Origin: a virus
Lineage: Duplodnaviria > Heunggongvirae > Uroviricota > Caudoviricetes
IMG/VR virus record: IMGVR_UViG_2778261708_000019
Length of the DNA: 5,758 bases
Direction: 5' to 3' (one strand)
Made by a program: the position numbers. Shown piece after piece: positions 3,001-5,071 of this stretch. The stretch's first letter is position 1, and each line of letters begins with the position of its first letter.

Positions 3001-5071
3001 TGCCGCTGTCTCAGCGCGCGTTGCTGCAGATTCCGCCGTACTTTTGCTCTGAGCTGCTGCCGTCGCACTACCAGCTGCCTCTGTCGCCTTCGTGGATGCC
3101 GTCGTGGCGCTGCTCTTCGCTGCTGACGCTTGTCTGGTCGCCTCATCTTTTGAAGCAGACGCAGATGATGCCGATGACGCCGCCGAACTGGCTGACGATG
3201 CGGCAGCCGTTTTTGAGGATTCTGCGCTGGTTTCCGACGCTTTCGCGTTCGTTTCGGATGTCTTCGCTGCGGAAGCAGAACTCGCTGCTGCGCTGGCCTG
3301 TTCAGTGGCTTCGCCAGCCTTCGTTGTGGCTGTTGAAGCAGACGATGCGGCACTTTCTGCCGATTTTCCGGCGGCGGTGGCACTGGCTGAGGCCTGCCCG
3401 GCACTTGTTGACGCGGCACTGGCAGATAATGCAGCCGCTGTTTTTGAGCCTGCTGCTGCGGAGGCACTCTGTTCTGCTGCCGTTTCAGAGGACTTAGCGT
3501 TTGTCTCAGACGTTTTGGCCGCCTTCGCGGAATTGCCTGCCGCCGTTGCCGAGGAGGCTGCACTACTGGCGCTCGAGGCTGCGCTCGTTTCTGATGATTT
3601 TGCCGCCTCTTTTGAAGCCGACGCATCCCTGGCTGAGGAGGCAGCTTCTGACGCTTTCGTGGTCGCGGTGGATGCAGAAGTGGCGGCTGATTGTTGTGAC
3701 ACTGCCGCATTCGTTTCTGACGTTTTCGCCGCACCGGCACTGGTAGCCGCCGCGCTTTTTGAGGACTCTGCAGCGGCAGCACTTTTTGATGCTTCAGTAG
3801 CCTTTGTTGATGCCGTTCCTGCGCTGGAAGACGCTGACTGAGCCGACGACGCGGCCTGTCCGGCTGACGTGCTGGCTGCGCGTGCTGAGTCCGCAGCATC
3901 AGTCGCATGGGTTGCCGCCTCACGGGCTGATGTGCTGGCATCGCTGGCTGACTTCTTCGCGGCTGCCGTGTTCTGTGCCACCGCGGACGCGTTACGCGCC
4001 ACCTCTTCCACCATCAGCTCAAAACGGCGCAGTGCCTCCGGACGGACATCATCCTCAGTCATGGCACCAAGAAAATCATTCAGCGTACCGGGTTGAGAAT
4101 CTTCATACACGGTGATGGTCCCGGCATGTGACGGCGGGAACCCTTCCACCAACAGAATAACGCTGTACTGACCGTACTCAACGTCCATGCTGTAACGCCC
4201 GGCTTCATCCGGATTTTCTGAGGCCAGCGTGTTCACCACCACCGTGGTACTGTTACGTTTTGCTTTCAGCTGGATTGTGCAGTTCTGTACCGGTTTTCCT
4301 GTGCCGTCTTTCAGTACACCTGAAATCTTTACTGCCATATTCACCCCACAAAAAAGCCCGCCTGAACCGGCGGGCTGTCATAACACTGTGTTACCTAGCT
4401 AATCAGAATTTATAACCAACACCCACGATGAACCCGTCAGTGCGCCAGTCACCACTGCCAGAACCTTCATAAGCAATATCAATGGCCACGGATTCGGTCG
4501 GGTTAAACTGCACGCCAGCCCCCCACGCCAGAGACGTGTTGCTGTGGCGACCGTCATCACTTCCGGTCAGCACATCGTGCGTTTTCCCCTTGTTGTCAGT
4601 TACGCGAAGGTAATCCCCGGAAAAAGTCGAAACACGGCTGTAAGCCATACCCGCCATCGCATACGCGCTGAACCATTCATTCACGCGCACAGACGGCCCC
4701 GCCATCACGCTGAACCAGCGGTTACGCACGGAATCTTCATGCCAGCGGGTATCGCTGTAACGGGTCAGCTGGCGATTCTTGTCTCCTGCATAGCTGAATG
4801 ACGTCACCAGCCCCAGCGTATCCGTAAACTCATAACGGTATTTCACGTTAATCCCGTTCAGATCATCACTGCCGGGAACGTTGGTCCGGGCATGAAGATA
4901 CCCCGCGCTCAGCGTGGACTGATGTTCAGATGCCCATGCAGGCGCACCGGATACGGCCAGACAAATGGCTGCGGACAAAATGGCGGCATAAAGTTTACGC
5001 ATAATTACCTCTCGCTTTTCTGCAATAAAAAAGGCGTCATTTCTGACGCCCGTTCTGGGTTATAAAATTCA

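Follow-up and report, generated by a model that had tools for sequence, protein, structure and literature searches.

Here we describe the junction between the genes lom and stf in a 5,758-nt stretch of viral DNA (IMG/VR record IMGVR_UViG_2778261708_000019; Duplodnaviria, Heunggongvirae, Uroviricota, Caudoviricetes), which we call the window throughout and to which all positions refer unless another record is named. All genes of interest lie on its minus strand, namely the 3′ end of J, the outer-membrane protein gene lom, the side tail fibre gene stf and the tail fibre assembly gene tfa, and in the gap between lom and stf a hairpin followed by a run of T residues stands directly against the start of stf. 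In Escherichia coli strain 7784, which carries an identical stretch, the gene order is L, K, I, J, lom, stf, tfa, and the genes downstream of tfa are convergent host genes (a manganese-catalase gene), so that tfa closes the prophage end. A first-pass annotation, made from the sequence alone, had proposed that the hairpin is an intrinsic terminator, that stf and tfa are consequently expressed by read-through, and that lom is an insulated moron inside the tail operon.

The hairpin and T run between lom and stf

Read on the minus strand, the region consists of CAGCCCGCCGGTTCAGGCGGGCTTTTTTG, then TGGGGTGAAT, and then the stf ATG. The stem is formed by pairing of A4376–C4369 with G4362–T4355, the last of these residues being shared between the closing A:U pair and the T run. 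The hairpin lies 27 nt downstream of the lom stop codon TGA (4405..4403), on the sense strand shared by J, lom, stf and tfa, and the 11 nt between the T run and the stf ATG (4338..4336) are 4349..4339, GTGGGGTGAAT. Within them the stf Shine-Dalgarno (SD) sequence begins 2 nt past the T run and has its GGGG core 5 nt before the ATG, a start codon that agrees both with the RefSeq coding sequence start in the identical prophage and with the start of lambda orf-401. The first-pass annotation, which had drawn the hairpin and T tract at 4349-4377, the end of the T tract 11 nt before the stf ATG and the SD sequence right after it, is therefore accurate in its geometry.

The structure is also stable, as a folding calculation proposed by the same annotation made clear. 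The folding energy of 4349..4377 on the minus strand is -18.2 kcal/mol, whereas shuffled versions average -7.35 kcal/mol (z -4.5) and none of 200 does as well. It is the best match of the terminator scan in the window, with a T-tract weight of about 4.5 and a d score of about +43 (d'Aubenton-Carafa formula, with modern energies). Under a stricter definition, which demands at least seven perfect pairs, at least six of them G:C, a loop of 3–8 nt and then T5, it is the sole match on both strands of the window, and only 2 of 1000 dinucleotide shuffles of the window give any match. Chance as the origin of the hairpin plus T run is excluded by these shuffle statistics. An Rfam scan of the window finds no family at the hairpin.

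Two further roles were considered for the structure and rejected. Past the hairpin the plus strand reads GTCATAACAC, which holds no T run, so that the element is unidirectional, in the sense of lom and stf, and a bidirectional terminator is ruled out. The SD sequence and AUG of stf are unpaired when a 75-nt context is folded to minimum energy, which rules out a structure that occludes the stf ribosome-binding site (RBS).

These sequence features, together with the comparisons below, make it highly likely that the element is a Rho-independent (intrinsic) terminator, and that it forms the 3′ boundary of a lom cassette that interrupts a lambda-type tail operon between J and stf.

Table 1. Features of the lom region of the window, with position, strand and the evidence for each.
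Feature	Position	Strand	Evidence
Terminator hairpin, AGCCCGCC-GGTTCA-GGCGGGCT, 8 pairs (7 G:C), 6-nt loop	4355..4376	-	folding, terminator scan
T6 run (U-tract), TTTTTTGT, T4355 in common with the closing A:U pair	4350..4355	-	directly 3′ of the stem
stf Shine-Dalgarno sequence, GGGGTGA	4341..4347	-	sequence reading
lom 3′ untranslated spacer, stop codon to hairpin	4377..4402	-	nearly invariant in relatives
J–lom terminator-like hairpin, GGGCGTCA-GAAA-TGACGCCT (5051..5032), with T6 (5032..5027)	5027..5051	-	terminator scan
J 3′ end (central tail fibre / tip attachment protein), truncated by the window edge	5069..5758	-	Pfam Ig_GpJ_C, Phage_Tail_Tip
lom (Ail/Lom outer-membrane beta-barrel protein, 199 aa)	4403..5002	-	Pfam Ail_Lom, E 5e-120, full length
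stf (side tail fibre gene, 971 aa, ATG start 4338)	1423..4338	-	Pfam phage_tail_N, Phage_fiber_2, Collar
tfa (tail fibre assembly gene, 193 aa; last of the unit, followed by host genes)	842..1423	-	Pfam Caudo_TAP

A second structure of the same kind stands upstream of lom, where the J stop codon (5071..5069) is followed by the J–lom hairpin GGGCGTCAGAAATGACGCCT (-13.0 kcal/mol, d about +24), whose T run ends 24 nt before the lom ATG. The two strongest terminator matches, in the window as well as in 12 kb of the identical prophage, are the gaps on either side of lom, and the gene is thus bracketed by two terminators. Relatives carry GTC/GAC, GCC/GGC or ACC/GGT in the J–lom stem (GGGCGCC...GGCGCC; GGGCACC...GGTGCC), changes that are compensatory at two pairs and hence indicate that this structure is under selection. 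Different hairpins stand between J and lom in lambda and in Citrobacter.

The spacer between the lom stop codon and the downstream hairpin contains a perfect palindrome, TAACAC-A-GTGTTA (4393..4381, minus strand), which is nearly invariant in relatives. By a rough estimate a 6+6 palindrome in such a spacer is not beyond chance, and it could be a protein-binding site or nothing.

Relatives of the element in lambda, Rac and other prophages

With anchors in the flanks only, so that the hairpin was free to vary, 232 copies of the junction were gathered, and these fall into 31 variants. All except about three retain a hairpin, with energies from -12 to -18.2 kcal/mol, and most changes are in the loop. 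Among 27 distinct sequences, standard pairs occupy 97% of the pair cells; where only one side of the stem has changed, a G:U pair is kept at five pairs (10 cells) as against six unpaired cells. The stem changes are C-to-U at five sites and G-to-A at one, a bias of the kind that an RNA hairpin encoded on the minus strand would be expected to show; it is suggestive, though not statistically significant. A single variant, that of relative L291, reads GCCCGCA-GTTT-TGCGGGC, with A:U in place of C:G as its top pair.

The element is the same by descent as the hairpin between lom and orf-401 (the 5′ part of stf) in lambda (J02459, 19612..19633, with a T run to about 19639). The lambda copy occupies the same lom–stf position, and its flanks, lower stem, T run, SD sequence and stf start are identical to those of the window; it differs in the upper stem and loop, where GGAACCGGT stands in place of GGTTCAGGC, giving a nine-pair stem with one G:U, a 4-nt loop and -17.7 kcal/mol. 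The Lom proteins of lambda and the window share only about 46% identity. Hence the lom–stf element is already known in kind, as an ordinary strong intrinsic terminator, that of lambda lom. Neither of the two lambda records that we examined annotates a terminator at this junction, and a literature search for studies of a lom–stf terminator or of the lambda t'J terminators retrieved nothing specific. The J–lom and lom–stf hairpins may be two of the tandem intrinsic terminators t'J1 to t'J4 that Luk and Szybalski (Mol Gen Genet 1983) reportedly mapped distal to lambda J, an assignment that serves as a lead only and not as a result.

The element is widespread in E. coli. A hairpin identical to that of the window stands between lomR and stfR of the cryptic prophage Rac in K-12 MG1655 (NC_000913.3, 1429011..1429037), a 181-nt query spanning the junction has 12,121 matching places in 4295 of 5426 complete E. 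coli genomes, and a 901-nt query covering J, lom and stf matches 213 phage records. In one locus (L324, about 1090..1200) an IS21-type insertion sequence with an IstB-like ATPase open reading frame (ORF) replaces the 3′ end of lom just upstream of an intact copy of the terminator.

Contigs resembling lambda's own lom–stf region also turned up in unrelated assemblies (L093-L104), among them those of Kitasatospora, Bradyrhizobium, Paenibacillus, Shewanella and Pseudomonas. Many of these are of low coverage and about 48.4-48.5 kb long, and the lambda variant of the hairpin occurs in 19 loci, including L093 and L094. Such contigs are almost certainly contamination with lambda control DNA and not real prophages.

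Cassettes and their terminators at the J/stf junction

The space between J and stf does not always hold the same gene or the same hairpin. Besides the main family described above (type A), a non-homologous hairpin, GAAGCCCGTGGCGTCACTGCTGCGGGC with a T7 run (type B), follows another, E. albertii-type allele of lom, and a third, CCGCAGGCCGGGAAACCGGTACTGCGG with a T7 run (type C), is present in 28 of 80 loci that lack lom. A hok/sok cassette fills the space in the type C loci (Hok by Pfam HOK_GEF, 2.4e-11; sok RNA by Rfam, 4.7e-12, its 57 bits falling slightly short of the gathering score, 59), as in L265 (771..1190), which, like 27 other loci among L248-L285, has hok/sok in place of lom and encodes a 46-aa Hok. 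This cassette resembles that of lom in its site and orientation and in a strong intrinsic terminator that ends about 15 nt before the stf ATG, whereas its cargo and terminator sequence are unrelated and the terminator there ends the hok mRNA. In phage PhiR12_4 the position holds only a 182-nt spacer with the type C terminator, and this spacer looks like the remnant of a cassette.

A comparable arrangement occurs at another junction of the tail operon. In Xenorhabdus an Ail/Lom-family gene, preceded by an AT-rich spacer, lies between the tail genes L and K, and a terminator stands about 20 nt before the start of K. Judged by its sequence and layout, this insertion is an independent cassette of the same architecture. 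In the Proteus loci, too, a terminator follows the Ail/Lom gene at the corresponding place, and the gene is probably also inserted between L and K (Xenorhabdus and Proteus loci together: L113, 1501..2110, and L114-L116).

Where no cassette is present there is no hairpin either. In the distant stf homologues of PY54, Rac-SA53 and Serratia phage Tlacuache, stf follows the upstream gene after 12-23 nt without one, and the same type A hairpin precedes two different stf 5′ ends. Because the terminator varies with the cassette, and because cassette-free stf homologues are without one, the terminator belongs to the inserted cassette and is set against an intact stf RBS. The same two observations bear on a different reading, in which the element is a dosage attenuator whose main role is lytic and not insulation in the lysogen, even Q-modified polymerase stopping in part here and at the J–lom hairpin and so lowering stf and tfa relative to J. 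The presence of two tandem terminators between J and stf would suit it, as would the finding that a terminator precedes stf whichever cassette is present. However, the tight packing of the cassette-free homologues implies that stf itself requires no terminator, the terminator changes with the cassette and not with the stf allele, and Q-modified polymerase is highly resistant to terminators. We regard attenuation as the main role as highly improbable.

The T runs weigh against another role. The hairpin could mainly be an element of RNA stability or processing: as a 3′ stem-loop it would keep 3′ exonucleases off a processed lom mRNA or off the J–lom part of the long late transcript, or as a 5′ structure it would stabilize the stf–tfa segment. 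It is stable, it leaves the stf SD sequence free, it sits at the border of segments whose products are needed in different amounts, and terminator hairpins can double as 3′ protective structures. However, a stabilizer alone needs no T run, and T6 follows the stem directly here, as T runs follow the stems of types B and C. A stability role is moreover compatible with termination and does not exclude it. As the principal function we hold stability to be very unlikely.

The present arrangement has been shaped by exchange. Over the end of J and most of lom the identity between lambda and the window is about 60%; at about 4480 it rises to 90-97% and stays there across the hairpin and into stf. This jump falls about 75 nt before the lom stop codon, and the E. 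albertii allele shows the reverse pattern. By this comparison the position at about 4480, inside lom, is a mosaic breakpoint, at which the body of lom would have been exchanged separately from a block made up of the lom 3′ end, the terminator and the stf 5′ end.

A modest addition to what is known of such operons is that different cassettes, lom alleles and hok/sok, recur at the J/stf junction, each ended by a terminator of its own against the stf RBS. A stronger version, which we consider unlikely, would make J/stf a fixed docking site and require of any inserted cassette a strong terminator at its end, 11-17 nt from the stf ATG. Q-type antitermination would then strictly gate stf, and cassette promoters active in the lysogen would never leak into it; the hairpin might also act on the read-through stf mRNA, for instance by protecting its 5′ end or as a standby structure. 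If this rule held, the placing of a terminator against the RBS would be a selected feature and not an accident of insertion.

Predicted read-through and the proposed moron character of lom

If the element terminates transcription, an unmodified polymerase arriving from lom would pause on the U-tract once the G:C-rich hairpin had formed, and the RNA would be released at about 4352..4350. Termination there would leave a transcript that carries lom and lacks stf and tfa. During lytic growth, late-operon polymerase under a Q-type antiterminator would read through both the J–lom hairpin and the lom–stf terminator. The mechanism invoked is that of lambdoid tR' and Q antitermination, and Q-dependent read-through of downstream terminators is described for Shiga toxin (Stx) phages (PMC7547250, PMC8065619). 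The two terminators differ in that tR' is a promoter-adjacent regulated switch, whereas that of lom is situated far downstream and would simply be overridden. The window contains neither Q nor pR'; we infer that termination takes place in the cell, that Q brings about read-through, as known from lambda biology, and that lom has a transcript of its own in the lysogen.

For the genes downstream, two consequences follow from the spacing. No promoter fits in the 11 nt before the stf ATG, so stf and tfa can be transcribed only by read-through, which supports what the first-pass annotation had said of their expression. Translation of stf on the read-through RNA would not be blocked, because the SD sequence just 3′ of the U-tract stays single-stranded. 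The element would thus illustrate how a lysogen can transcribe a host-benefit gene, lom, while its tail-fibre genes stay off, and it would explain the dependence of stf and tfa on antiterminated late transcription, in agreement with the current understanding of morons and of late transcription in lambda. Its significance beyond correct annotation is small.

Morons are defined as having their own promoter as well as their own terminator (PMC3594210, PMC8065619). Like the described moron cassettes (HK97 gene 15, lambda lom and bor; Juhala et al. 2000; Cumby et al. 2012, PMC3594210), lom of the window is an extra gene between conserved late genes that has its own terminator and encodes a host-benefit protein, and HK97 gene 15 likewise lies inside the tail operon (PMC3594210). 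The junction behaves as expected of a moron site, in that stf is packed against the upstream gene in PY54, Rac-SA53 and Tlacuache and hok/sok takes the place of lom elsewhere. Unlike those cassettes, lom of the window has no detected promoter, the feature that defines them, and its G+C content (55-58%) is not clearly foreign. The corresponding values are about 46-51% for the J 3′ end and 44 to 63% for stf, and since stf itself varies so widely, G+C content is not decisive as a sign of a foreign origin of lom. At the level of sequence the proposal that lom is an insulated moron is supported: the gene has its own terminator, is bracketed and belongs to cassettes that are swapped at the junction. 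No sigma-70 promoter was found for it.

Lambda lom is expressed in lysogens (PMC7067206). Little is known of its promoter, and lom went undetected in one array study (PMC2147009). The small RNA HnrS of enterohaemorrhagic E. coli prophages is placed only 'within the late genes' (PMC13502914).

Several results weigh against a terminator that serves an independently transcribed lom. A sigma-70 promoter scan of the window gave no site with at least 9 of 12 matches, and a relaxed scan of the 500 nt upstream of lom gave only two poor matches of 8 of 12, both deep inside J. With no sigma-70 promoter found and only 24 nt available between the J–lom T run and the lom ATG, an independent lom transcript is not anchored at its 5′ end; lom may have an activator-dependent or non-sigma-70 promoter. 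That the promoter has not been located although two terminators bracket the gene is itself a modest addition. The K-12 Term-seq tables (PMC7815308) list no 3′ end near 1429035, at the lomR/stfR copy in Rac. This prophage is cryptic, IS5 interrupts its lomR and the region is probably silent, which would make the null result uninformative. In a Citrobacter homologue the hairpin is retained and the T run is poor. Finally, a covariation test on the 27 distinct copies of the type A family found no double compensatory change, their divergence being too low, and because these copies are very similar their conservation could partly reflect recent spread and recombination.

Taken to its limit, this last point would make the element a functionless passenger, conserved only through a recently spread, recombination-prone lom–stf linker, and the step in identity between lambda and the window at about 4480 would fit such a history as well as the missing double changes do. 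Yet chance is excluded by the window shuffles, substitutions avoid breaking pairs, at least three unrelated sequences supply a hairpin plus T run at the same junction, and the neighbouring J–lom hairpin covaries. A passenger is, on this evidence, extremely improbable, and an intrinsic terminator at the end of the lom cassette is the best explanation of the junction.

The downstream end of the unit is built differently. Positions 1..842 hold no clear minus-strand terminator downstream of tfa, so that the late unit stops at the prophage border without a canonical terminator, whereas lom has two. An ORF at 363..722 on the plus strand is part of the convergent manganese-catalase gene, which is host DNA in the identical locus of strain 7784. 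Inside tfa, at 882..1080 on the minus strand, lies the sole real match of the Rfam scan in the window, a full-length IS009 (RF02111) that scores 229.5 bits against a gathering score of 117.

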